Source: a virus
Reading direction: 5' to 3' (one strand)
Length of the DNA: 13,447 nucleotides
UHGV virus genome: UHGV-0125438
Made by a program: the position numbers and the translations under genes. Positions within the stretch are counted from its first letter, which is position 1. Every line of letters starts with the position of its first letter. The notes below the pieces were generated by a model that saw only the letters and a program-made list of their open reading frames with translations, ran no database searches and was not told the DNA's origin. Of this stretch, positions 603-12,613 are shown piece by piece.

Positions 603-3116
603 ATGCCAGTTGTACCAACAACATCGGGCCGTCAGGTTCAAAGCAGAGGGATTTCGACGCAGGGATTCTCATCGTTTCAGACACCAAATGTCGGTGATGT
701 ACTTGGCGATGTTGCAGAGCAATATGCAGGTATTATTGCGCAGGCAAAACAGCGTGCGAATGTTGCTATGGCTCAGGATGCTTCTCTTAGCTTAAGCCAG
801 ATAAGCAGCGATCTGCTGAATAACCCTGAAACAGGTTTGCTTAACCTGAAAGGGAAAAATGCTATTGGAAAAGGTCAGGAGTATACGCAGCAGTTTGATG
901 CCCAGGTCGAGCAACTGGCTATGTCGCTGCCGGATGAACAGGCTCGTAATGCTTTCATGCAGCAGGCACAGCAGCAGCGCATTCAGTTCACTACGCAGGC
1001 CGGGCGGCACGAGATAGGGCAAATTAATGCCTACGAAGAAGGTCAGTTTCAGGCGACGCTGCTGAATAATGGTAAAAATGCCGCAGCATTGTATGGCGAC
1101 AATGCCGCATATGTATTGGCTAATAAGCAAACTTTCCAGCAAATTGAGGATTACGGCATTGCGCATGGCTGGAGCGACGAGCAAATCCAGGCCAAGAAAA
1201 TCGAGTTTAAAGAGAAGGTTGCTGATGCCGCATTGTCCCAGTGGTCGGCAAACAATGCGACCGCATTCATCCAAAGTAATGGCGAGTTAAGTGATACTGC
1301 TGCTGGAGCTCGCCGTGCTGTAGCAGATAGTGACTCTTCCGAGCGTGCCCGTGGCATACGCAACAATAACCCAGGAAATCTCGAATACAGCAAAACTAAT
1401 CCGTGGGTAGGCCAGACCGGTGATGATGGTCGATTTGCTAAATTCGAAACACCTGAACACGGGATTCGTGCATTAGGGCGGAACCTGATGTCGTATCAGC
1501 GGCAGGGTATTGATACAGTCAGCGAGATAATTAATCGCTGGGCACCGCCTACTGATAAAAATGACACTATGTCGTATATCAAAGCAGTGTGCGAACAACT
1601 TGGCGTTTCTGCTGATGAGCCTCTCGATGCATCAAATCCTGATACCCTGAAGGCGCTTTGTGCAGCCATTATCCATCATGAGAACGGTAGCCAGCCATAC
1701 AGTGATCAGCAGTTAACTGCTGGTGTCAGTGCAGCACTTGGTTTATCAACAATTCCAACCAACACCAAACGCTATACCGGTAATGCAGCATTCGATGCGG
1801 CCTCTCCTGAGGCGCAGGCAAGTTTTATGCGACAGGCGGATCAACTGCGTCGGCAGCAGCAGGCTGAATATAAAACGATGATTGACAGCCAGGTTCGCGA
1901 TGCGACGGCTGCGTATATGCGTGGCGTTGAATTTCCTAATCCACCTGGTGAGGCTGATTTTATTGCAGCTTATGGCGTCAGAGAAGGAAACCTGCGATAT
2001 ACCGAGTTCAGAAATACGCAGATCGCCGGACAGTATATAGGCTCTTTCCGCAACATGCCGACAAGCAGCATTACAGCATATGTTGAGCAATTACGCCCGG
2101 ATACTGGTGAGACAGGGGAGGGGTATGCGGCACGCGCAGCTCTTTATGACAACGTTGTTTCGGCTGCAAATCAGGTGATAAAGCAGCGGCAGTCGGATCC
2201 TGTGCAGTTCTCTCTTGCCTCCGGACAGGCAAAGCCTATCGACATGAGCAATAAGGATAACTTTGGACAGAGCGTTGCCTTGCGTGCCGCTCAGGTCAGT
2301 GACCTTGCCAAGTCATATGGCACTCCACTGACGTTCTTTTCCAAAGACGAGGCCAATCAGATCGGTGTTTTCTTTCGTGATGCGCCCGTTTCCCAACAGG
2401 CAGCATATCTCGATACCATCAGGCAAAGCACTGGCGGTGGGCAAGTGTATATGTCAGCACTACAGCAGATCAGTGCCAACGCTCCATCTGCTGCCGTTGC
2501 CGGGATACTGATGGATAAGCCTGGTGGTATTTTGGCAGAAAAAAACTGGTTTAATCCGGATGTTTCCGTGTCTCCTGAAACCGCTGCGCAGACAATTCTT
2601 GCTGGCGCGGCGGCTCGTAAAGGTACTGATGATGCGAAAGGTATTCCGATGCCTAAAGATGCTGATCTTCGCCTTGAGTTTTCTGACATGGTGAAGGATG
2701 CATTTGCTGGTGACGCTCAGGGGGCATCAATGGCATACGAGATCGCAAAGGATTATTACGCTGGTGTGATGGCGAAAAAAGGCGTGGTATCAGGCGAAAT
2801 TGACAATGATGTCTGGAAACAGGCTGTTAACGTAGCTACAGGTGGCGTGCATGACTATAACGGAATGGGGAATGTCCTTTTGCCGTGGGGAATGTCTGCA
2901 GAGCAATTCGATAAGCAGGTTAATCAGGCTTGGAATGAACAAGTTGTCGGCTCCGGGATAAAAACACCGCCTGGTCAGTATGGTTTGCAAAGTTACGGCG
3001 ATAGTCAGTACCTGGTGAAACTTGGTACTGGTTATCTGCTGAAAGATGATGGTTCTCCCGTTGTTCTTAATCTGACACAGAAGCGTCAGAGATTCTCCGG
3101 AGATATTCCGCAATGA
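603..3116 (+). CDS. large internal virion / ejection (core) protein, 837 aa
   Basis: 837-codon ORF with ATG at 603 after GGGGATAATAAG; stop overlaps the next start (ATGA at 3113-3116). First of three consecutive 600-840 aa proteins immediately upstream of the tailspike, matching the ejection-protein block of epsilon15-like podophages as I recall it. Contains a motif block (GIRNNNPGNLEY ... HGIRALGRNL ... INRWAPP) that looks like a discrete domain. Confidence 0.8.
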   Translation: MPVVPTTSGRQVQSRGISTQGFSSFQTPNVGDVLGDVAEQYAGIIAQAKQRANVAMAQDASLSLSQISSDLLNNPETGLLNLKGKNAIGKGQEYTQQFDAQVEQLAMSLPDEQARNAFMQQAQQQRIQFTTQAGRHEIGQINAYEEGQFQATLLNNGKNAAALYGDNAAYVLANKQTFQQIEDYGIAHGWSDEQIQAKKIEFKEKVADAALSQWSANNATAFIQSNGELSDTAAGARRAVADSDSSERARGIRNNNPGNLEYSKTNPWVGQTGDDGRFAKFETPEHGIRALGRNLMSYQRQGIDTVSEIINRWAPPTDKNDTMSYIKAVCEQLGVSADEPLDASNPDTLKALCAAIIHHENGSQPYSDQQLTAGVSAALGLSTIPTNTKRYTGNAAFDAASPEAQASFMRQADQLRRQQQAEYKTMIDSQVRDATAAYMRGVEFPNPPGEADFIAAYGVREGNLRYTEFRNTQIAGQYIGSFRNMPTSSITAYVEQLRPDTGETGEGYAARAALYDNVVSAANQVIKQRQSDPVQFSLASGQAKPIDMSNKDNFGQSVALRAAQVSDLAKSYGTPLTFFSKDEANQIGVFFRDAPVSQQAAYLDTIRQSTGGGQVYMSALQQISANAPSAAVAGILMDKPGGILAEKNWFNPDVSVSPETAAQTILAGAAARKGTDDAKGIPMPKDADLRLEFSDMVKDAFAGDAQGASMAYEIAKDYYAGVMAKKGVVSGEIDNDVWKQAVNVATGGVHDYNGMGNVLLPWGMSAEQFDKQVNQAWNEQVVGSGIKTPPGQYGLQSYGDSQYLVKLGTGYLLKDDGSPVVLNLTQKRQRFSGDIPQ

Positions 3117-4920: not shown

Positions 4921-7395
4921 ATGAGACAGGAATGTATACAAGCGGTCCAGCAGGCGGCGCAGCGCACGTTAACGGCGCGAGAAATACAGAACATTGAAGA
5001 CCGCATTTATCGAAATATGCGCTCCATTGCTCGTGATGATCCGATGTCGTGGCGACAACTTTCCGAATCAGAACGGTTGTATCGTGCAGCACAATTGGCA
5101 TCTGAAGAATTACAGCGAGAAGCGGCATTAAAGAAACGTCGTGTGGCTCTCACTATAGCCGCACGTCAGAGATTGGATAAATTTATCAATAGCTATCAAG
5201 GGGCTGATGGGAAACTTGGCGCTCTTAACCGTACTATTGCTTTTAATGCAGACGGTAAATCGAATTTCCTCTCTGTTGAATCCAGAACAAAAGCCACTCG
5301 TGATTATGCATTGAGTCAATTGCAGGAGGCATTTGAAGCAGTTGATCCTCGCTTTTTTGGCCTGTTTGAAGATGAAGCTGGCGTGCGTGACCTGGTATAT
5401 GAAATGCGAGGGCAAAATACTGGCAATGCTAAAGCAAGAAAAGGTGCTAAGGCGTGGAGAGAAGTGACAGAGCTACTGCGCCGCCGGTTTAATGATGCTG
5501 GTGGGGACATTGGCTATCTCGAAAACTGGGGGATCCCTCAACATCATTCTATGGAAAAGGTTGGGGCGGTATCAAAGGATAAGTGGGTTAGCGATGTTAT
5601 AGGTAAGCTGGATCGCAAATATTATACCCGAGTCGATGGACAACTGATGAACGATGCCGAGTTGTCTGCATTTCTTGGAGAGGCTTATAACACGATCGCT
5701 ACTGGTGGGCTGAATAAGCTTACTGATACCGGAATGCGAATTTCCGGCGCACGTGCTAACCGTGGTAATGCATCACGACAGATACATTTCAAAGATGCAG
5801 ATTCCTATCTGCAATATCAGCAACTTTATGGCGATCGCTCTCTATGGGAAATCATGGTCGGTCACCTGGAAGGTATCAGTAAAGATATTGCACTGGTGGA
5901 AACATATGGCCCAAACCCCGATCATGTTTTCCGCTCTCTTCTTGATCAGGTGAAGGCAGAAACTGCAACAGCTAACCCGAGTAAAATCGGTAAAGTCGAG
6001 CGGCTGGCGAACAACACAGAGAATCTGTACAACTTTATTTCCGGAAAGACACAGCCTGTAGCGAATCCGCACATCGCGCGATGGTCTGACAATATCCGCA
6101 ACTGGCTGGTTGCCAGCAGACTCGGATCCGCGTTGCTGTCATCGTTCTCTGATCTTGGAACCATGTATCTGTCTGCGAAGGTTACCAACCTTCCAATGAA
6201 CCAGTTATTCCGCAACCAGCTTGAAGCTATGGACCCAACGAACCGTACAGAACTTGCGCGGGCGCGCCGCGCTGGTCTGGCGATGGAATCTTTACTTGGC
6301 AGCGTTAACCGCTGGGCGATGGATAATATGGGGCCGTCAGTGTCTCGTTGGGCGGCAACGGCGGTAATGCGTGCCAGTGGGCTTACAGCATGGTCAGATG
6401 CGCACAAGCGCGCCTATGGCGTAACCATGATGGGAAGCCTGGGAGAAGTAGTGTCACGGACAGCAGACCTTCGTAGCCTCGATGACTCTGATTTTCGTAT
6501 CCTGAAAAGCAAAGGGATTACTGACACAGACTGGAGAGTATGGAAGCTGGCGCAACAGGAGGACTGGGGGAACGGTAATAATACGATGCTGACACCGGAA
6601 AGCATTATGCGTATCCCTGATTCAGCAGTTAAACATCTTGGTGATCCTGAACGTGTGAAATTTGAGGCAATGCGTAAACTGCTCGGTGCCGTAACTGAAG
6701 AAGTTGATATGGCTGTTATTACACCGGGAGCACGTGAGCAACTGATAACCGGTTCTGGTATTCAGCGTGGAACATGGAAAGGTGAATTAACGAGAAGTGT
6801 TTTCCTGTTTAAATCGTTCCCTATCTCGGTGGTTATGCGTCACTGGTCACGCGCTATGGGTATGCCGTCTGCTGGTGGGCGTGCGGCATATATTGCGACG
6901 TTTATTGCCAGTACGACCATTCTTGGAGCTTTGTCGCAGCAACTTAACGACCTTGCGTCTGGTCGTAATCCTCGCGAGATGACAGGAGAAGATGCCGCAA
7001 AATTCTGGCTTGGTGCTCTATTGAAAGGTGGTGGTCTTGGCCTTTACGGTGACTTTTTATTGTCAGATCACACTAGGTACGGAAGCGGCGCGCTGGCGTC
7101 GATGCTTGGCCCGGTGGCTGGTCTGGTTGATGACGTAGTGAAGATTGCTCAGGGCATACCGTTAAATGCTGTGGAAGGGAAGAGTGAGCAGACTGGTGGT
7201 GATCTGGTGAAGCTGGGGAAAGGTTTGATGCCAGGTGCGAATCTCTGGTACTTGAAGGCGGCTCTCGATCACATGATCTTTAACCAGATGCAGGAGTATT
7301 TTTCACCAGGCTATTTGCGTAAAATGGAGCAACGTTCGAAGAAAGAGTTTAACCAGACATACTGGTGGCGACCTCAGGATGTCACTCCGCAATAA
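4921..7395 (+). CDS. large internal virion / ejection protein, 824 aa
   Basis: ATG at 4921, 5 nt after the previous stop; 824-codon ORF ending TAA at 7393-7395. Third large protein of the block; the only antisense ORFs across it are low-complexity shadow ORFs. Confidence 0.8.
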   Translation: MRQECIQAVQQAAQRTLTAREIQNIEDRIYRNMRSIARDDPMSWRQLSESERLYRAAQLASEELQREAALKKRRVALTIAARQRLDKFINSYQGADGKLGALNRTIAFNADGKSNFLSVESRTKATRDYALSQLQEAFEAVDPRFFGLFEDEAGVRDLVYEMRGQNTGNAKARKGAKAWREVTELLRRRFNDAGGDIGYLENWGIPQHHSMEKVGAVSKDKWVSDVIGKLDRKYYTRVDGQLMNDAELSAFLGEAYNTIATGGLNKLTDTGMRISGARANRGNASRQIHFKDADSYLQYQQLYGDRSLWEIMVGHLEGISKDIALVETYGPNPDHVFRSLLDQVKAETATANPSKIGKVERLANNTENLYNFISGKTQPVANPHIARWSDNIRNWLVASRLGSALLSSFSDLGTMYLSAKVTNLPMNQLFRNQLEAMDPTNRTELARARRAGLAMESLLGSVNRWAMDNMGPSVSRWAATAVMRASGLTAWSDAHKRAYGVTMMGSLGEVVSRTADLRSLDDSDFRILKSKGITDTDWRVWKLAQQEDWGNGNNTMLTPESIMRIPDSAVKHLGDPERVKFEAMRKLLGAVTEEVDMAVITPGAREQLITGSGIQRGTWKGELTRSVFLFKSFPISVVMRHWSRAMGMPSAGGRAAYIATFIASTTILGALSQQLNDLASGRNPREMTGEDAAKFWLGALLKGGGLGLYGDFLLSDHTRYGSGALASMLGPVAGLVDDVVKIAQGIPLNAVEGKSEQTGGDLVKLGKGLMPGANLWYLKAALDHMIFNQMQEYFSPGYLRKMEQRSKKEFNQTYWWRPQDVTPQ

Positions 7396-7404
7396 GGATG
7401 AGAA

Positions 7405-7545
7405 ATGATTGCTTTTATTCTTGTTGTATTTGTGCTTGTTGCCCTTGGCGTTATGAATCGTAAATGTATCATTGAAGACGGTGAATTTGCTGTAGCAGTT
7501 GTTTTGATATTATCTGGTGTAGCAGGGCACATAGGTTTGTCATAG
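7405..7545 (+). CDS. small hydrophobic protein (46 aa), hypothetical
   Basis: Absent from the supplied ORF track (below its length cutoff). ATG at 7405 lies 7 nt after AAGGA (7393-7397) and 9 nt after the upstream stop. My translation is MIAFILVVFVLVALGVMNRKCIIEDGEFAVAVVLILSGVAGHIGLS, two hydrophobic stretches around a charged loop; stop TAG at 7543-7545. Confidence 0.4.
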   Translation: MIAFILVVFVLVALGVMNRKCIIEDGEFAVAVVLILSGVAGHIGLS

Positions 7546-7565
7546 CTTGAGTGTGACATGTCACA

Positions 7566-7581
7566 GGCCGCTTTCGCGGCC
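7566..7581. terminator. GC-rich hairpin (GGCCGC-TTTC-GCGGCC) between convergent genes; possible bidirectional terminator or RNA-stabilising stem
   Basis: Perfect 6-bp GC stem with a 4-nt loop, sitting between the end of the + strand small ORF (7545) and the stop of the - strand gene (7589-7591). No clean poly-U tract on either strand, so terminator function is uncertain. Confidence 0.3.
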
Positions 7582-7588
7582 CTTAAAT

Positions 7589-7846
7589 TTACCGGATTTG
7601 TTTTCGTAATTGTTCGGCACAATAGTCGAGATGTGTTTGCAGATCCTGCATAGACATCTGTGAGCTGGTGACGTAGTTAATCAGTGCAGTCAGTTCGGCA
7701 AGTGGGCCATCGACATTAAATCCATCCTTATCGAGATCCCGGAGTAATTTCATCAAGTGCGATCCCTCCACCAGTGACCTGACGCCTCCCGGCGTGTGAA
7801 TCCTTTCGGTAAATCCGTCTTCCAGTGGATAGTGATACTGCTGCAT
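7589..7846 (-). CDS. small antisense protein (85 aa), unknown function, apparently LexA/SOS-regulated; candidate antirepressor or SOS-induced moron
   Basis: Only convincing - strand gene in the window. I place the start at the internal ATG (7846-7844) because GGAGAAGATAAG sits just upstream on the - strand; the track's longer 126-aa form would run through the LexA box and an AT-rich low-complexity stretch. Product begins MQQYHYPLEDGFTERIHTPGG. A LexA box lies about 20 bp upstream. Confidence 0.55.
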   Translation of the reverse strand: MQQYHYPLEDGFTERIHTPGGVRSLVEGSHLMKLLRDLDKDGFNVDGPLAELTALINYVTSSQMSMQDLQTHLDYCAEQLRKQIR

Positions 7847-7865
7847 CTTATCTTCTCCATGCAAT

Positions 7866-7885
7866 AACTGTATGTTTATACAGTA
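7866..7885 (-). promoter_or_regulatory. LexA binding site (SOS box): AACTGTATGTTTATACAGTA
   Basis: CTGT-N8-ACAG with flanks matching 17 of 20 positions of the E. coli LexA consensus TACTGTATATATATACAGTA, both CTGT/ACAG half-sites intact. It sits in the AT-rich intergenic region just upstream of the - strand gene starting at 7846. Confidence 0.6.
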
Positions 7886-8041
7886 ACAAATAATTTGTTT
7901 GCTATCCAGCACGTTTTGCAAATTACCCGAAAGGTAATATCTATTGGTATTTATAGTCTTTTTATCCATATATGGTTTTTCAGGTAATAGAATAACCAGA
8001 TATGCGGCGCAACGGGTGCTGCGACTATCTGGAGATTTAAC

Positions 8042-10393
8042 ATGACGGTCTCAACCGAAGTTGACCACAACGAATACACCGGTAACGGCGTTACGACATC
8101 ATTCCCTTATACCTTTAGGGTTTTCAATAAATCTGATCTAGTAGTGCAGGTGATTGACCCTGAAGAGAATATCACTGTGCTGGCTCTTGATACTGATTAC
8201 ACAGTCACTGGTGCGGGAGGGTATAACGGCGGCAATGTAATTCTGTCGAAGGCACTGGCTAATGGTTATCAGATTTCCATATCGCGAGAACTGCCGGTTA
8301 CTCAGGAAACAGATCTTAGAAACCAGGGTAAGTTTTTTGCTGAGGTGCACGAGGATGCGTTTGATAAGCTGACTATGCTCATACAGCAGGTAAGTAGTTT
8401 ATTCGGGCTGGCGCTACGTAAGCCATCGAGTATCGCAAACTGGTATGACGCGCTGAACAACTACATCCGTAATCTGTGCGACCCACGAGACCCACAGGAC
8501 GCGGCTACCAAGAACTATGTCGATACGCTGGCAAGTGGCAACTTGAGCCGTACTCTGCGCGTTCCTGAGCCCATTAATCAGCTACCATCAGCAGTTGACA
8601 GGGCAAACAAAATGCCCGCGTTTGATAGCATGGGTAATGCAATTGTCGTTCTCCCGCCATCAGGTTCCGCATCTGAAGTTCTGATAGAGCTGGCAAAAAG
8701 TGACGGCTTCAAATTGATAGGGCAATTCCCTAACGTCACAGTTCTCCGTGCAACGGAGCCAGCTTCCGATGGTCAGCGGGTGCTCCTGAAAGAATATACC
8801 TCTGGTACAGGTTACGGTGGTGGTCAGCTTCGCGCAGTGCTTGATGGAAGTGCATATACAGACAACGGCGTTACCGTATTCAAGACTCCTGGTGGAGCGG
8901 CATGGATTCGTGTTAATGCTGATATCATTAACCCATTAATGGCTGGCGCAGTGCCTGATGGAGTTACCCCGTGCTCAGCAGCAATTAACGCCATGTTTGC
9001 TGTTGGCAAGAGAATGCAGTTTACAGGTGGTGATTATCTTCTTGATGCCACTATAACATTGCAAGCAGGTAGGTCTGTAGATTTTGGATCATCAAGGTTA
9101 ATCCAGGGTACTTCGCTGGCAAATTATATATTGGCGATAAGGGGGGATAATACACATACCTCAGGTGGTTTTATAGTTGGCACAGGTGTCAGGGCTGGGG
9201 CAAACAGTGTGGTGTCTGCGGTATTAGTTGCTGATACCTCTTATAGTTATGTTAAAGGAATGACAGTAAGAAGGGTCCCTGGCTCTGGTATTCAGATGAT
9301 CAATTGCACACGTTGTAAAATTCAGGATTGCATTTCTGAAAATAACTGGGGTATGGGTATTGAAGACCGTTACGGGACATTCAATGAAATTATCAATTCT
9401 GTCGGTAACTATAATGGTTATCTGAGTGATACAGAAATATCTGATGGCGGCAGAGGATGTATTGTCTGGAAGAGCACTGGTACAACCTTTAAAGGAAATC
9501 AAACATTCGGAAATAGCGAGTACGGCATTCGTGTGTATTCACAATCTGGAGATGATGCCACTACACGTTACATCCACATTTTCGACCATCTGGCTGGCGA
9601 TAACAAAAAAATAGACATCTACATTTACAATGATGCAGGAACACTACTTAACGTTGAGTTGAGTAATTGCCATATCCATAGATGGAGCCAGTCATTTAGC
9701 GGAAGCTATATGATTTCTTTGCAAGGAACTCGCTGCCATTTCAATGGAGGAAGTATAACAAAATATGGTGACATTTACGATTCAACGGCAATCCATTGTA
9801 GCAATGGCGACAATATCACAGTTGAAAACGTCAGCATTTCTAACGTATCTGCTGCTTTCGGTAACACTGCCAATAATACTACCGTAAGAAATTGCTCTGC
9901 TTCTTGTGGCGTTGTTATGACAGGTACAGGTGGAACCACCGGATATCTGACATTTGAAAATTGTAACTTTAGCCACACTGGCGCAGGTACATCTGATATA
10001 GCTTTCACAGTAACCTCTGCTACAAAACTTGAAGGGGTCAGGTTCAACGGATTCTTTAGGAATGTTTCATGGAACAATGAACCTCTAATCCTTATAGATT
10101 GTCACAGCACAAATACAACTGGAGACGCAATCAGAATGTACGGAGATGGTGTTGGAGCGTTCTTCCACTCTGGCTGTCGTTGGGATGTCCCAACAGTTCC
10201 TGCCTGGCTTGGAAGCTTAGTGAAGCAAGGATCATCTCTCCCTGTGCTTTACGATACCGCCGCTCCAACCACTTTGACCTGGCCAAGGGGATCGCGATGC
10301 ATAAATTCCTCTCCTGCTGTCGGGAGCCCTAAGGAGTGGGTATGTGTTACCGCCGGCACTCCTGGCACTTGGCAGTCAACAGGAAATCTCTAA
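8042..10393 (+). CDS. tailspike protein (783 aa): conserved N-terminal particle-binding domain plus beta-helix receptor-binding / polysaccharide depolymerase domain
   Basis: ATG at 8042 after GGAG; 783-codon ORF. The N-terminus MTVSTEVDHNEYTGNGVTTSFPYTF matches, from memory, the conserved tailspike N-terminal module of epsilon15/phiV10-like phages. The C-terminal two-thirds is rich in short Asn/Gly/Ser/Thr-containing repeats (NVSISNVSAAFGNTANNTTVRNCSASCGVV, and similar), typical of right-handed parallel beta-helix depolymerases. Confidence 0.85.
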   Translation: MTVSTEVDHNEYTGNGVTTSFPYTFRVFNKSDLVVQVIDPEENITVLALDTDYTVTGAGGYNGGNVILSKALANGYQISISRELPVTQETDLRNQGKFFAEVHEDAFDKLTMLIQQVSSLFGLALRKPSSIANWYDALNNYIRNLCDPRDPQDAATKNYVDTLASGNLSRTLRVPEPINQLPSAVDRANKMPAFDSMGNAIVVLPPSGSASEVLIELAKSDGFKLIGQFPNVTVLRATEPASDGQRVLLKEYTSGTGYGGGQLRAVLDGSAYTDNGVTVFKTPGGAAWIRVNADIINPLMAGAVPDGVTPCSAAINAMFAVGKRMQFTGGDYLLDATITLQAGRSVDFGSSRLIQGTSLANYILAIRGDNTHTSGGFIVGTGVRAGANSVVSAVLVADTSYSYVKGMTVRRVPGSGIQMINCTRCKIQDCISENNWGMGIEDRYGTFNEIINSVGNYNGYLSDTEISDGGRGCIVWKSTGTTFKGNQTFGNSEYGIRVYSQSGDDATTRYIHIFDHLAGDNKKIDIYIYNDAGTLLNVELSNCHIHRWSQSFSGSYMISLQGTRCHFNGGSITKYGDIYDSTAIHCSNGDNITVENVSISNVSAAFGNTANNTTVRNCSASCGVVMTGTGGTTGYLTFENCNFSHTGAGTSDIAFTVTSATKLEGVRFNGFFRNVSWNNEPLILIDCHSTNTTGDAIRMYGDGVGAFFHSGCRWDVPTVPAWLGSLVKQGSSLPVLYDTAAPTTLTWPRGSRCINSSPAVGSPKEWVCVTAGTPGTWQSTGNL

Positions 10394-11934: not shown

Positions 11935-12339
11935 ATGTCGCACTCGTTAACCACTGAAACGCTGAATCAGGGGCTTAGCCTGAGCGCGCTGATGTCTGTG
12001 GTCGCGGGTGCGCCGCCTGAGGTGGCTTTAGGGGCGCTCGCTGGCGCGGTAATTTTTGTTACCTCGGCGGTGGAGTATCCCATAAAGCGACGGTTACTTC
12101 TGGCGTTCCTCAGCTTCTTCTGCGGCCTTCTCTTCTACAAACCGACAGCAACACTTCTCATCGGCTTCGCATCCGCTTTCCCTGGTATTACCACAGATAT
12201 GTTTGAGAAAGGTGTTGCTTACTCAGCAGGGGCGTTTGTTTCTTCAATCGTTGCTGTTGGTATCGGTACCTGGCTGTATCACCGTTCTGGAAATCCACGC
12301 GACCTGATTCCGGGGAGAAAAGACGATGATCAGTCCTGA
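11935..12339 (+). CDS. multi-pass membrane protein of the lysis cassette (about 134 aa); putative holin or holin-associated protein
   Basis: Three to four hydrophobic helices (LSLSALMSVVAGA, LGALAGAVIFVTSAV, LLLAFLSFFCGLLFY, AGAFVSSIVAVGIGTWLY) and a charged C-terminus (RSGNPRDLIPGRKDDDQS). It directly precedes a second small membrane protein and the endolysin. Start is ambiguous: ATG 11935 with GGTGG upstream, or the track's GTG 11926. Confidence 0.65.
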   Translation: MSHSLTTETLNQGLSLSALMSVVAGAPPEVALGALAGAVIFVTSAVEYPIKRRLLLAFLSFFCGLLFYKPTATLLIGFASAFPGITTDMFEKGVAYSAGAFVSSIVAVGIGTWLYHRSGNPRDLIPGRKDDDQS

Positions 12340-12613
12340 GCTCATCCTGAACGCCGCTATATGTGGCGGCATTGCAATCCGAGTCCTGCTGTTCCGCCGT
12401 GACGGGTCACGCCATCGCTGGTGGGGAGGGTGGCTCGCCTATCTGCTGATCGTCGTTGCTGCCAGCGTACCTATCCGGACGTTCTACGGGTACTACGTCA
12501 GCGCCGACTGGTCAGAAATCATCATCAAAGCCGTGTTCCTGGCTGCGCTGATCAAGACAAAAGGGAACGTGGTACAAATCTTCAAGATAACGAGGTCCCA
12601 GCATGGACATTAA
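12326..12613 (+). CDS. putative holin (95 aa)
   Basis: ATG at 12326 after GGGGAG; overlaps the upstream gene by 14 nt and the endolysin start by 11 nt. Small protein with two to three hydrophobic segments and a basic C-terminal tail (KTKGNVVQIFKITRSQHGH), as expected for a holin. Confidence 0.65.
   Translation: MISPELILNAAICGGIAIRVLLFRRDGSRHRWWGGWLAYLLIVVAASVPIRTFYGYYVSADWSEIIIKAVFLAALIKTKGNVVQIFKITRSQHGH

Follow-up and report, generated by a model that had tools for sequence, protein, structure and literature searches.

The window analysed here, a stretch of 13,447 nucleotides, derives from an epsilon15/phiV10-like phage (Uetakevirus). Its best match among complete E. coli genomes was 97.6% identical, and part of the region matched 539 of 5426 such genomes, in 59 cases with a query coverage of at least 80%. 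Phages of the epsilon15/phiV10/SPN1S type are common prophages and have been used for typing, for biocontrol and as reporter phages.

Near the middle of the window two genes converge. The first encodes a 46-aa predicted membrane protein and is the final gene of the plus-strand late structural/ejection-protein operon; its homologues phiV10p21 and SPC32H_019 are both annotated as 'putative integral membrane protein'. The second, ant, has homologues in SPC32H_020 ('ant: anti-repressor protein' in the annotation) and phiV10p24. The ORF listed at this place on the minus strand has 126 aa, and phrog_450 and phrog_1760 align to its residues 42-126; this over-long ORF is evidently the 85-aa ant plus an upstream extension. 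With stop codons at 7543-7545 (46-aa ORF) and 7589-7591 (ant), the gap and its two flanking genes comprise the following elements, and a second sequence with the same arms lies further downstream:

7405-7545, plus strand: 46-aa ORF, predicted membrane protein (ORF list; phrog_7892, E 2.5e-30)
7552-7565, no strand assigned: 14-bp perfect palindrome TGTGACATGTCACA (sequence; core conservation; co-occurrence with the phrog_536 family)
7566-7581, plus strand: GC stem-loop GGCCGC-TTTC-GCGGCC (terminator scan; phiV10 RefSeq annotation; 120 contigs; RNA fold)
7582-7591, plus strand: tail CTTAAATTTA, a weak U-tract that overlaps the ant stop codon (7589-7591)
7589-7846, minus strand: ant, 85 aa, homologue of the SPC32H antirepressor (annotation, PHROG matches, translation)
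12399-12410, no strand assigned: second exact-arm match GTGACGGGTCAC, inside a holin-region ORF

An earlier note on this DNA had described TGTGACATGTCACA at 7552-7565 as an exact inverted repeat, directly followed by the stem-loop at 7566-7581, the two together filling the space between the 46-aa ORF and the minus-strand gene. All of this is borne out by the sequence.

The predicted terminator hairpin

The hairpin has a 6-bp stem made entirely of G-C pairs and a 4-nt loop, begins 20 nt past the stop codon of the 46-aa ORF, and was flagged by a terminator scan; its tail CTTAAATTTA is weak, yet passed the scan. The equivalent hairpin is already annotated as 'terminator' in the phiV10 RefSeq record, and the tails of relatives are strong T-tracts (TTGTTTTT, TTTTATTTTT and TTTTCTTTTT). 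Among 120 IMG/VR contigs, which were chosen for carrying the palindrome plus the GGCCGC arm, the stem is kept together with more than 20 loop variants and a T-rich tail in nearly all. The hairpin also forms in the predicted RNA fold of the 71-nt region, with a minimum free energy of about -20 kcal/mol. By these features it is an ordinary plus-strand intrinsic terminator, predicted to end the late structural operon. Like the intrinsic terminators that end phage late operons, it has an all-GC stem, here of 6 bp, and a tetraloop directly after the last gene, with a strong T-tract in relatives; the window copy differs from typical ones in its weak tail (CTTAAATTT) and in the palindrome that abuts it on the 5′ side. 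The hairpin itself is nothing unusual.

The possibility of a bidirectional terminator, raised in the earlier note, is not retained, because a T-rich tail is found on the plus strand alone, both in the window and in relatives. On the minus strand the hairpin is followed by the palindrome itself (UGUGACAU, with 3 U in 8 nt) and, in SPC32H, by UCGUGACA; overall there are 2-3 U in 8 nt. The palindrome-hairpin unit in addition lies at a mosaic joint. Megablast homology with TL-2011b and EC.W1-9 starts at window position 7565/7566, phiV10 and TL-2011b carry modules inserted directly after the unit, and the 120 contigs show 57 distinct left and 54 distinct right flanks around it.

Recurrence and position of the palindrome

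Taken alone, the 14-bp palindrome does not exceed chance expectation. The window holds two perfect 14-bp palindromes against 0.82 expected and six perfect 12-bp palindromes against 3.3 expected, and the significance of the palindrome at 7552-7565 comes solely from its recurrence and conservation in relatives. The conserved unit is a 12-bp core, GTGACATGTCAC at 7553-7564, here named 'site C' of the phage family; relatives differ in the outermost bases of the 14-mer, T and A in the window, and have pyrimidine...purine there. We define the motif as GTGAC-N2-GTCAC (pattern YGTGACATGTCACR).

A search of the genome and its relatives for further copies, as the earlier note had suggested, was positive and decisive. 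The core GTGACATGTCAC occurs exactly three times in PAS61 (12343, 14608 and 32674), in SPC32H (38629, 2145 and 19634) and in the epsilon15-type phage VB_ST_E15, at the same three conserved positions in each. Tyrion has three copies once its record is circularised, and TL-2011b has two. About 0.04 copies are expected per genome, giving a Poisson P of 1e-5 to 1e-6. GTGACATGTCAC is the sole multi-copy perfect 12-bp palindrome in PAS61, SPC32H, VB_ST_E15 and Tyrion; in TL-2011b another one, AAACTATAGTTT, is likewise present in two copies. At site C, PAS61, phiV10, SPC32H, VB_ST_E15, Tyrion and TL-2011b all have the exact core, even with unrelated flanks, and despite a wholly different upstream gene in epsilon15, Tyrion and TL-2011b. 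It remains exact at 80% overall identity. The spacer is strictly N2: Uetakevirus loci totalling 1.39 Mb have 129 N2 copies and not one with N1, N3 or N4. The 12-mers were not found in a phage context in the literature searched.

Two other sequences in the window deserve mention. The second exact-arm match, GTGACGGGTCAC, is of uncertain status and may be a chance match; it is missing from the equivalent place in Tyrion, and the holin segment around it gave no blastn matches in PAS61, SPC32H, VB_ST_E15 or TL-2011b. A longer perfect palindrome, of 16 bp and included in the counts above, lies at 1707 within a gene.

Each Uetakevirus copy lies at a transcription-unit boundary, with a strong intrinsic terminator on its 3′ side: site A at the early-to-late boundary, site B at the terL/moron junction and site C at the late-operon/ant junction. 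Read along the strand with the T-tract, sites B and C consist of a stop codon, after 1-7 nt the palindrome, after a further 1-5 nt the GC hairpin, and then the T-tract; at site A, the terminator preceding terS lies 26-42 nt downstream of the palindrome, and the sequence of the interval between the palindrome and this terminator (tA) differs between the E. coli and the Salmonella lineage. The three copies adjoin three different terminator stems (GGCCGC, GCCAGC/GCCCGCG and GCCGCC), so the palindrome is no hitch-hiker on a single hairpin.

Several familiar kinds of site were considered and set aside. The half-sites resemble those of CRP, and the earlier note had already remarked that their spacing is wrong. 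The pentamers TGTGA and TCACA of the CRP site (TGTGA-N6-TCACA) are indeed both present in the window 14-mer, but they are separated by 4 bp where CRP needs 6, and the outer T/A are unconserved in relatives; a CRP/FNR-type site is ruled out by the spacing. A sigma-70 promoter over the palindrome, with GTGACA as -35 element, was dropped as a general explanation because the candidate -10 (TAAATT, at 17 bp), found only at site A of the Salmonella/Enterobacter phages, is missing at sites B and C and also from the E. coli lineage. The location of site A just upstream of terS, and a Tyrion record that is cut exactly at the palindrome centre, prompted us to consider a pac or cos site, which is disfavoured because Tyrion is reported to be circularly permuted and each genome has three identical copies. 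Finally, we rejected an operator for Cro or for Rep, the prophage repressor: the rep-cro region is without the motif, and its repeats are of the ATTACC-N5-GGTAA(T) type.

A protein family that accompanies the motif

One motif copy contains the stop codon of a 112-aa gene, which in Uetakeviruses is the last of the early-right operon and lies just upstream of terS. In PAS61 this ORF (12008-12346) belongs to phrog_536 (E 1.7e-54), and it alone among the ORFs of PAS61 has homologues by blastp in N15, Vibrio phage K308 and Yersinia phage vB_YenM_42.18. The window is without this gene. The family comprises 179 cluster representatives in 1.84 billion proteins and ranges over podo-, sipho-, myo-, Mu-like and linear-plasmid phages. 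A locus search with the family alignment returned near-identical Uetakevirus loci only, and the distant lineages were reached by tblastn on phage records and a search of the encoding contigs.

PAS61 and these three otherwise unrelated phages all carry the motif. We found three exact-arm sites each in N15, phiKO2, K308 and PhiPS02, and in the Yersinia P2-like phage one exact site and a site with one mismatch 33 bp away; lambda and an Aeromonas phage had none. The Aeromonas phage encodes a homologue of about 30% identity, and its GGTGATCACC repeats lie within coding regions. In three lineages (Uetakevirus; N15 gp46/phiKO2 gp45; Vibrio phage 10N.237, with locus L225), with regulator proteins of about 35% identity, the stop codon of the regulator gene falls within the motif in one and the same register, TGA being motif bases 2-4. 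In Mu-like prophages (Yersinia, Pectobacterium and metagenome) it lies 26-38 nt before the gene end and encodes VTGH. The motif was not found nearby in some distant family members (P0163 loci L223/L224 and Mu-like locus L226). In K308 and N15, motif sites lie 12-19 nt upstream of start codons with terminators not adjacent, and one N15/phiKO2 copy is inside repA. Taken over all lineages, the sites are at gene 3′ ends, beside terminators or before starts, and no conserved -35/-10 pair accompanies them. Positions thus differ between lineages, and any single terminator-tied mechanism would be hypothetical. That sites should lie where genes end, and even on the stop codon of the regulator gene, is unusual.

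The AlphaFold2 model of the phrog_536 protein (59 sequences; pLDDT 88) has helices at residues 5-18, 30-42, 52-74 and 100-108, and replaces an earlier model from 20 close sequences (pLDDT 70) that was without fold matches. Weak Pfam matches were to RHH_5, RepB-RCR_reg and RHH_1. The protein is predicted to consist of a ribbon-helix-helix (RHH) domain and then a Cys4 zinc module, the Cys pattern of the family being CxxC-(8-9)-C-(7-9)-C. Alignment of the C-terminal half to TraR with hhalign (probability 71%, E 3.8e-5) indicates a weak similarity that serves as a lead only; a PDB hmmsearch gave E 0.05-0.14 for YbiI and TraR, and TraR/DksA was not returned by the fold searches. The defining features of TraR/DksA are a DxxDxA tip and a CxxC-17-CxxC zinc finger (PMC9239242), neither of which was found in the phrog_536 family. 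The base-facing residues of the predicted beta strand are unconserved among homologues sharing the same arms, and recognition may therefore use other parts of the protein or another factor.

Interpretation and comparison with known systems

We consider it fairly probable that the gap contains two adjacent elements with separate jobs, a hairpin that terminates the late operon and a palindrome that serves as a site of the phrog_536 protein. GTGAC-N2-GTCAC is most likely where this protein binds double-stranded DNA. Their co-occurrence suggests the pairing; binding itself, and an effect at operon junctions, are what we infer. Among the options listed in the earlier note, an operator for a dimeric phage regulator is the one favoured by an exact, multi-copy and positionally conserved core together with a co-occurring family of predicted RHH proteins. 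The GC hairpin with its T-rich tail would act as the Rho-independent terminator of the plus-strand late structural operon and would also serve as a recombination joint for swapping accessory gene modules. A dimer of the phrog_536 protein, or a dimer of dimers, would occupy the palindrome and control the outcome for RNA polymerase at the operon junction. It would either be a roadblock in both directions that insulates convergent units, or alter how far the adjacent terminator is read through. Late transcription at site C would then end before ant or continue, antisense to ant, in the direction of the tailspike and lysis genes. What was an anonymous intergenic palindrome has thereby become a concrete and testable candidate regulator-site pair, the protein family of which is uncharacterised.

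A more specific version, which we put forward tentatively as a possibility, is that the phrog_536 protein is a site-specific transcription-junction factor that combines its RHH domain with a TraR/DksA-like zinc module and acts on RNA polymerase. Parked on matS-like 12-bp palindromes at operon ends, its own stop codon included, it would cause elongating or terminating RNA polymerase to stop or to read through. If this is true, the factor at site C would decide on antisense late transcription through a LexA-controlled antirepressor gene. Equally tentative is a related possibility, that the protein is a phage mimic of MatP/matS that bridges the three sites, in phage chromosome organisation or in interference with the host Ter macrodomain.

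The leading alternative, which we hold to be rather unlikely, is that the palindrome is the loading site of a Q-like antiterminator, with the phrog_536 protein engaging RNA polymerase there and letting it pass tA, tB and tC, to give a single long late transcript that would extend to the tailspike and lysis genes. In Uetakeviruses the gene indeed has the 'Q position', being the last early gene and followed by its own site, a terminator and terS, and every copy of the motif lies 5′ of a terminator. At sites B and C, about 30-37 bp separate the palindrome centre from the expected release point downstream of it, and the distance from the lambda QBE to the pause is similar. [quoted passage not shown] However, no conserved promoter or pause element lies beside the site, the sequence between palindrome and tA differs between lineages, the sites of K308 and N15 have no adjacent terminator, and the tip and finger motifs of TraR are absent, with the fold searches missing TraR/DksA. 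Moreover, N15 and phiKO2 already have a Q-like late regulator, P2-like phages an Ogr-like one and Mu-like phages Mor, which indicates that the phrog_536 protein is no universal late-gene switch.

It is unlikely that the palindrome is bound in matS-like fashion by host MatP or another host factor, which would tether or organise phage or prophage DNA or titrate MatP. The motif-bearing phages all infect Enterobacterales or Vibrio, hosts that encode MatP, and the MatP site has the same arms; the matS consensus is the 13-bp GTGAC-R-N-Y-GTCAC (PMC3603311). In Uetakeviruses, N15 and the Yersinia phage, however, the spacer is invariably 2 bp and a 3-bp spacer was never seen; the 1.39 Mb of Uetakevirus loci have no N3 site against the 129 N2 sites, and 1 bp less means that the half-sites are shifted and rotated relative to each other. 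True matS is reported to be absent from 500 Escherichia and Salmonella prophages (PMC3603311), lambda has no sites of the phage motif, and binding by a host factor would not account for a motif that, in otherwise unrelated phages, accompanies a single phage gene and overlaps the stop codon of that gene. The phrog_536 protein as a MatP homologue was likewise rejected (hhalign probability 0.1-0.4%; no Pfam MatP/MatP_C match), and fold comparison of the predicted model suggests that the two share the generic RHH fold only. Since the site is nearly identical to host matS, one may ask whether there is cross-talk between phage regulators and the host's chromosome-organising system.

We regard as quite unlikely a role of the palindrome as RNA, in which a small hairpin GUGA-CAUG-UCAC, adjoining the terminator hairpin on its 5′ side, would stabilise the 3′ end, mark processing, or tune termination or the translation of the adjacent gene. 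The palindrome is transcribed in every context, just past stop codons or just before ribosome-binding sites, and at sites A and B the fold prediction includes a 4-bp hairpin. A precedent is Com of phage Mu, a small zinc-finger protein whose target in the mRNA lies immediately before the following gene. At site C, however, the left half pairs with upstream UGUCAUA in the fold and no palindrome hairpin forms, a stem of 4-5 bp is weak, Rfam gave no above-threshold match (only a spurious sub-threshold Histone3), and the predicted binder has a DNA-binding RHH fold. Across lineages the 'loop' dinucleotide varies (AT, TG, CA, AC, GC, CC, AG and CG), the stem is invariant and no compensatory stem changes were seen, the opposite of the usual signature of RNA structure. 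Invariant arms with a free central dinucleotide form a pattern of double-stranded DNA half-sites rather than of an RNA hairpin, which also disfavours the processing or stability element proposed in the earlier note.

That the palindrome has no function of its own, as a passenger of a mobile terminator/boundary cassette or by chance, is very improbable: a 14-bp palindrome is not improbable in 13 kb and the palindrome-hairpin unit is located at a mosaic joint, but the core is exact at 80% overall identity and between unrelated flanks, and the motif recurs in unrelated phage types.

The preferred pairing of the palindrome with the phrog_536 protein can be compared with four known systems. Lambda Q/QBE likewise has its regulator as the last early gene, with a DNA site and then a terminator before the late genes, as at Uetakevirus site A. 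The phage system differs in having several sites per genome, each with its own terminator, in lacking an identified promoter or sigma-dependent pause, and in a protein that has no homology to any Q family and also occurs in phages with their own Q, Ogr or Mor. With the TraR/DksA family (F TraR, lambda Orf73), the phrog_536 protein shares a weak profile similarity over residues ~52-112 (helix plus CxxCG..P zinc motif), and both are small zinc proteins encoded by phages or plasmids; the phrog_536 protein is without DxxDxA and CxxC-17-CxxC and has an added N-terminal RHH domain.

In comparison with matS/MatP, the organiser of the Ter macrodomain in E. coli and Vibrio, the arms are identical and the spacer is 2 bp (a 12-mer) instead of 3 (a 13-mer). 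The phage sites occur at terminators and where genes end, whereas prophages are reported to lack true matS. MatP has a four-helix bundle and a coiled coil; the phrog_536 protein is predicted to have neither, and a Cys4 module instead.

RHH repressor-operator pairs (P22 Arc/Mnt in immI, omega, CopG and AmrZ) similarly consist of a small RHH protein and a palindrome or repeat of abutting half-sites, and P22 immI has a similar neighbourhood, an antirepressor gene being flanked by ejection-protein genes on one side and the tailspike gene on the other. A classical RHH operator overlaps the promoter in front of the gene that it controls, whereas the phage motif sites do not and are instead located at gene 3′ ends, on the stop codon of the regulator itself, beside terminators or a few nt before ribosome-binding sites. 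Compared with classical RHH regulators, the phrog_536 protein has an additional conserved C-terminal module, the predicted Cys4 zinc module.

Palindrome, hairpin and neighbouring genes

Over positions 7000-8100, the window shares 96% identity with Escherichia phages vB_EcoP_PAS61 (PAS61) and phiV10 and ~80% identity with Salmonella phages SPC32H and SPN1S, all belonging to the genus Uetakevirus (epsilon15-like). Three large virion/ejection-protein genes are followed by a small membrane ORF, the gap with the palindrome and hairpin, the antirepressor gene ant and the tailspike gene:

7405-7545, + strand: 46-aa membrane ORF
7552-7565: palindrome TGTGACATGTCACA
7566-7581, + strand: hairpin GGCCGC-TTTC-GCGGCC, directly 3' of the palindrome
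directly 3' of the hairpin: tail CTTAAATTTA
7589-7846, - strand: ant (85-aa version), SPC32H homologue annotated as anti-repressor
8042 onwards, + strand: tailspike gene

The exact 14-bp inverted repeat and adjoining GC stem-loop described in the earlier note were confirmed in the sequence. A LexA-box-like CTGTATGTTTATACAG (CTGT-N8-ACAG) is located at 7868-7883, ~20 nt 5' of the ant start codon, which is consistent with ant being an SOS-controlled antirepressor and agrees with the SPC32H annotation; because the mechanically called 126-aa ORF (7589-7969) crosses this box, the 85-aa version is taken as the real ant. At 7538-7558, the closing codons TTG TCA TAG of the 46-aa ORF supply an imperfect additional half-site, TGTCATA, as the third; in the RNA fold it is paired to the palindrome's left half (UGUCAUA/UGUGACA). 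This pairing is kept in SPC32H and PAS61 and is not found in epsilon15 or phage Tyrion, whose upstream gene differs.

The hairpin is an ordinary intrinsic terminator that had been annotated before: it was flagged as terminator-like on the + strand by a consensus terminator scan of the window, and the phiV10 RefSeq record marks the same hairpin as a terminator. Across 120 IMG/VR contigs selected by the pattern GTGACATGTCAC-N0-4-GGCCGC, its loop has >20 different sequences, the palindrome-to-hairpin spacer is 1-3 nt, and the tail is T-rich in nearly all (TTGTTTTT, TTTTTCAT, TTTTATTTTT and others), the C-initial tail of the window being a rare, weaker variant. Read on the - strand, what comes after the hairpin is the palindrome, with just 2-3 U per 8 nt; the hairpin would thus be a poor terminator for ant, so that the idea of a bidirectional terminator can be set aside.

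Homology to phages TL-2011b and EC.W1-9 (megablast) begins at window position 7565/7566. In phiV10 (2066-3100) and TL-2011b (32282-35260), extra modules encoding Bro-N proteins, a P22-type Arc/Ant pair and a YafO toxin are inserted directly 3' of the hairpin and separate ant from the palindrome-hairpin unit. The insertion ends distally with a second GGCCGC hairpin copy in TL-2011b and with a second annotated terminator in phiV10, indicating that the hairpin acts as a module-exchange joint.

Recurrence of the 12-bp core in Uetakeviruses

A single perfect 14-bp palindrome in 13.4 kb is, taken alone, unremarkable (two observed in the window versus 0.82 expected). A longer, 16-bp perfect palindrome, CAGCAGTTAACTGCTG, occurs at 1707-1722 within the gene for an 837-aa virion protein, and palindrome length alone is therefore uninformative here. 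The search for further copies in relatives, as the earlier note had suggested, was positive for the 12-bp core GTGAC-N2-GTCAC (7553-7564), whereas the outer T/A of the 14-mer is not conserved. The core GTGACATGTCAC has exactly three copies each in PAS61, SPC32H and VB_ST_E15, three in Tyrion (record circularised) and two in TL-2011b, with a chance expectation of ~0.04 per genome (Poisson P 1e-5 to 1e-6). It is the sole perfect 12-bp palindrome with more than one copy in PAS61, SPC32H, VB_ST_E15 and Tyrion; TL-2011b has another, AAACTATAGTTT, in two copies. The three positions are identical across the genomes compared:

Site A: on the stop codon of the last early-right gene; terminator GCCGCC-loop-GGCGGC-T tract 26-42 nt further, before terS
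Site B: between terL and a convergent moron gene; - strand: stop codon, 4 nt, palindrome, 4-5 nt, hairpin, TTTGTTTT
Site C (window copy): + strand: stop codon, 1-37 nt, palindrome, 1-3 nt, hairpin, T tract

In Uetakeviruses a strong intrinsic terminator stands 3' of every copy, and since the three hairpins differ, the palindrome does not simply travel along with a particular hairpin. The site C core remains exact despite an unrelated upstream gene (epsilon15, Tyrion, TL-2011b). Of 80 loci retrieved via the neighbouring protein rather than the motif, nearly all have an exact site A, with variable bases directly 3', and the spacer is strictly 2 (129 N2 copies versus none with N1, N3 or N4). The palindrome is a strictly conserved, multi-copy, double-strand-symmetric motif at transcription-unit ends, both real and functional-looking.

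Several further sequences were observed. A degenerate fourth copy (GTGACATGTCAT at SPC32H 26696-26707; GTGACATGGCAT at 26830-26841 of the epsilon15-type VB_ST_E15) overlaps the stop codon of Rz, the final lysis gene, with TGA once more as motif bases 2-4, and PAS61 has GTAACATGTAAC at 37390, where the O-antigen acetylase gene borders the lysis cassette. The window has another exact-arm match, perhaps a chance one, in GTGACGGGTCAC at 12399-12410 within a holin-region ORF (12326-12613), with ~0.012 motif sites expected by chance in the window; it is missing from the equivalent place in Tyrion, and the surrounding holin segment has no blastn match in PAS61. In the linear Tyrion GenBank record, the ends (41760/1) split the site A palindrome precisely into its two halves (…GTGACA | TGTCAC…). 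The genome is circularly permuted according to its paper, and the cut is probably arbitrary, a packaging-related cut being the other reading. Between the site A terminator and terS, ATTACC-N5-GGTAAT (SPC32H 1-46; Tyrion ~55-100) resembles the rep-cro intergenic repeats (ATTACCCAACAGGTAA; PAS61 6500-6565, GGTAAC...GTTACC), which suggests that the prophage repressor may also bind directly 5' of the late operon.

A co-distributed protein family with a predicted ribbon-helix-helix fold

The gene with its stop codon in site A (PAS61 12008-12346) encodes a 112-aa protein that is labelled hypothetical in source records and has no sequence match in Pfam, NCBIfam or PDB; it matches phrog_536 'transcriptional regulator' (E 1.7e-54). 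The AlphaFold2 model, built from 59 diverse family members (pLDDT 88; helices 5-18, 30-42, 52-74 and 100-108), predicts a ribbon-helix-helix (RHH) fold, in agreement with weak Pfam matches to RHH_5, RepB-RCR_reg and RHH_1. Two cysteines of the C-terminal half are invariant (CxxC), one is nearly invariant, and the fourth position is kept in most members. The weak profile similarity of this half to TraR/YbiI (PDB hmmsearch E 0.05-0.14; hhalign probability 71%) is only a lead, as the TraR hallmarks (DxxDxA tip, CxxC-17-CxxC spacing) are both lacking and fold searches with the model returned no TraR or DksA.

A search of 1.84 billion proteins (E ≤ 0.001) gave a small family of 179 cluster representatives, and tblastn found homologues at 30-40% identity in N15 (gp46), phiKO2 (gp45), Yersinia P2-like phages, many Vibrio phages and others. 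In all-against-all blastp, the 112-aa protein is the sole PAS61 ORF with homologues in Vibrio phage K308, N15 and the Yersinia phage. The motif travels with it: N15 and phiKO2 have three GTGAC-N2-GTCAC sites each at conserved positions (GTGACTGGTCAC / GTGACCAGTCAC), K308 and PhiPS02 three each (centres GC, AC or CC), and Vibrio phage 10N.237 one; in the Yersinia phage, a single exact site is accompanied at a distance of 33 bp by a copy with one mismatch. In N15/phiKO2, and in 10N.237 and its relative L225, the motif sits on the homologue's stop codon in the same register (TGA = motif bases 2-4). The gene is somewhat longer in Mu-like prophages (metagenome, Yersinia pekkanenii, Pectobacterium odoriferum), where the motif precedes the gene end by 26-38 nt and has a second copy ~5.5-6 kb upstream, and in a P22-portal phage the variant GTGTCCGGTCAC flanks the regulator gene on both sides. 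No motif was found in distant lineages L223/L224 and L226, in lambda, or in an Aeromonas phage with a 30% identical homologue. The motif is co-distributed with one protein family of predicted RHH fold, and in Uetakeviruses an intrinsic terminator adjoins it.

Mu-like family members (L222 10001-10390; L226; L227-L229) stand directly upstream of gemA and mor, and the P0180 subgroup has a C-terminal extension in which VTGH is encoded by the motif GTGACCGGTCAC. One N15/phiKO2 copy (28550-28561 / 9510-9521) has gene 33 (phiKO2 gene 31) on one side and, on the other, the terminator preceding the icd-antA-antB operon; here too the motif is associated with a terminator and an antirepressor locus.

Candidate binder, possible action and known systems

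The earlier proposal of an operator for a dimeric phage regulator is favoured by this co-distribution as far as a cognate site is concerned, and a dimer of the 112-aa protein would presumably occupy the palindrome. Arms that never change around a centre free to vary are in keeping with the recognition of DNA half-sites rather than with an RNA hairpin. From these comparisons, the best explanation, and a reasonably probable one, is that the palindrome is the cognate site of this uncharacterised RHH/Cys4 phage protein; any specific mechanism is held with less confidence. None of the 12-mers of the motif occurred in a phage context in the literature searched.

Host MatP may instead bind the motif. 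This RHH protein targets the 13-bp matS (PMC3330122), whose consensus GTGAC[AG]N[TC]GTCAC (PMC3603311) has the same arms, and every motif-bearing phage found infects MatP-encoding hosts; however, the linkage of the motif to one phage gene is then left unexplained. In Uetakeviruses, N15 and the Yersinia phage, the motif is invariably 1 bp shorter than matS, and the phage protein has no significant sequence similarity to MatP. According to Bobay et al., 500 Escherichia and Salmonella prophages contain no true matS. Besides their 12-bp sites, K308 (19491-19503) and PhiPS02 (8818-8830) each have a single genuine matS of 13 bp (GTGACACCGTCAC), whereas enterobacterial prophages are reported to lack it; both Vibrio phages code for a ParA-like protein.

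If the phage protein is the binder, the polarity of palindrome then terminator at all three Uetakevirus sites suggests, more speculatively, control of polymerase passage at junctions. The bound protein might act as a symmetric roadblock insulating convergent units where the hairpin U-tract sits on one strand only, or might locally modulate termination; at site C, late transcription would then stop before ant or run antisense through ant towards the tailspike and lysis genes. Several observations argue against one terminator-linked mechanism for all copies: the K308 and N15 sites lie 12-19 nt 5' of start codons with no adjoining terminator, one N15/phiKO2 copy is within repA, and N15, P2-like and Mu-like phages carry their own late regulators.

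Where a binder's gene carries the binding site at its own 3' end, centromere/organiser systems are a nearer likeness than classical repressors, and this placement allows a MatP-like bridging role as a further reading. An RHH protein with a palindromic site is of a known kind; what is unusual here is the placement of the site and its likeness to matS.
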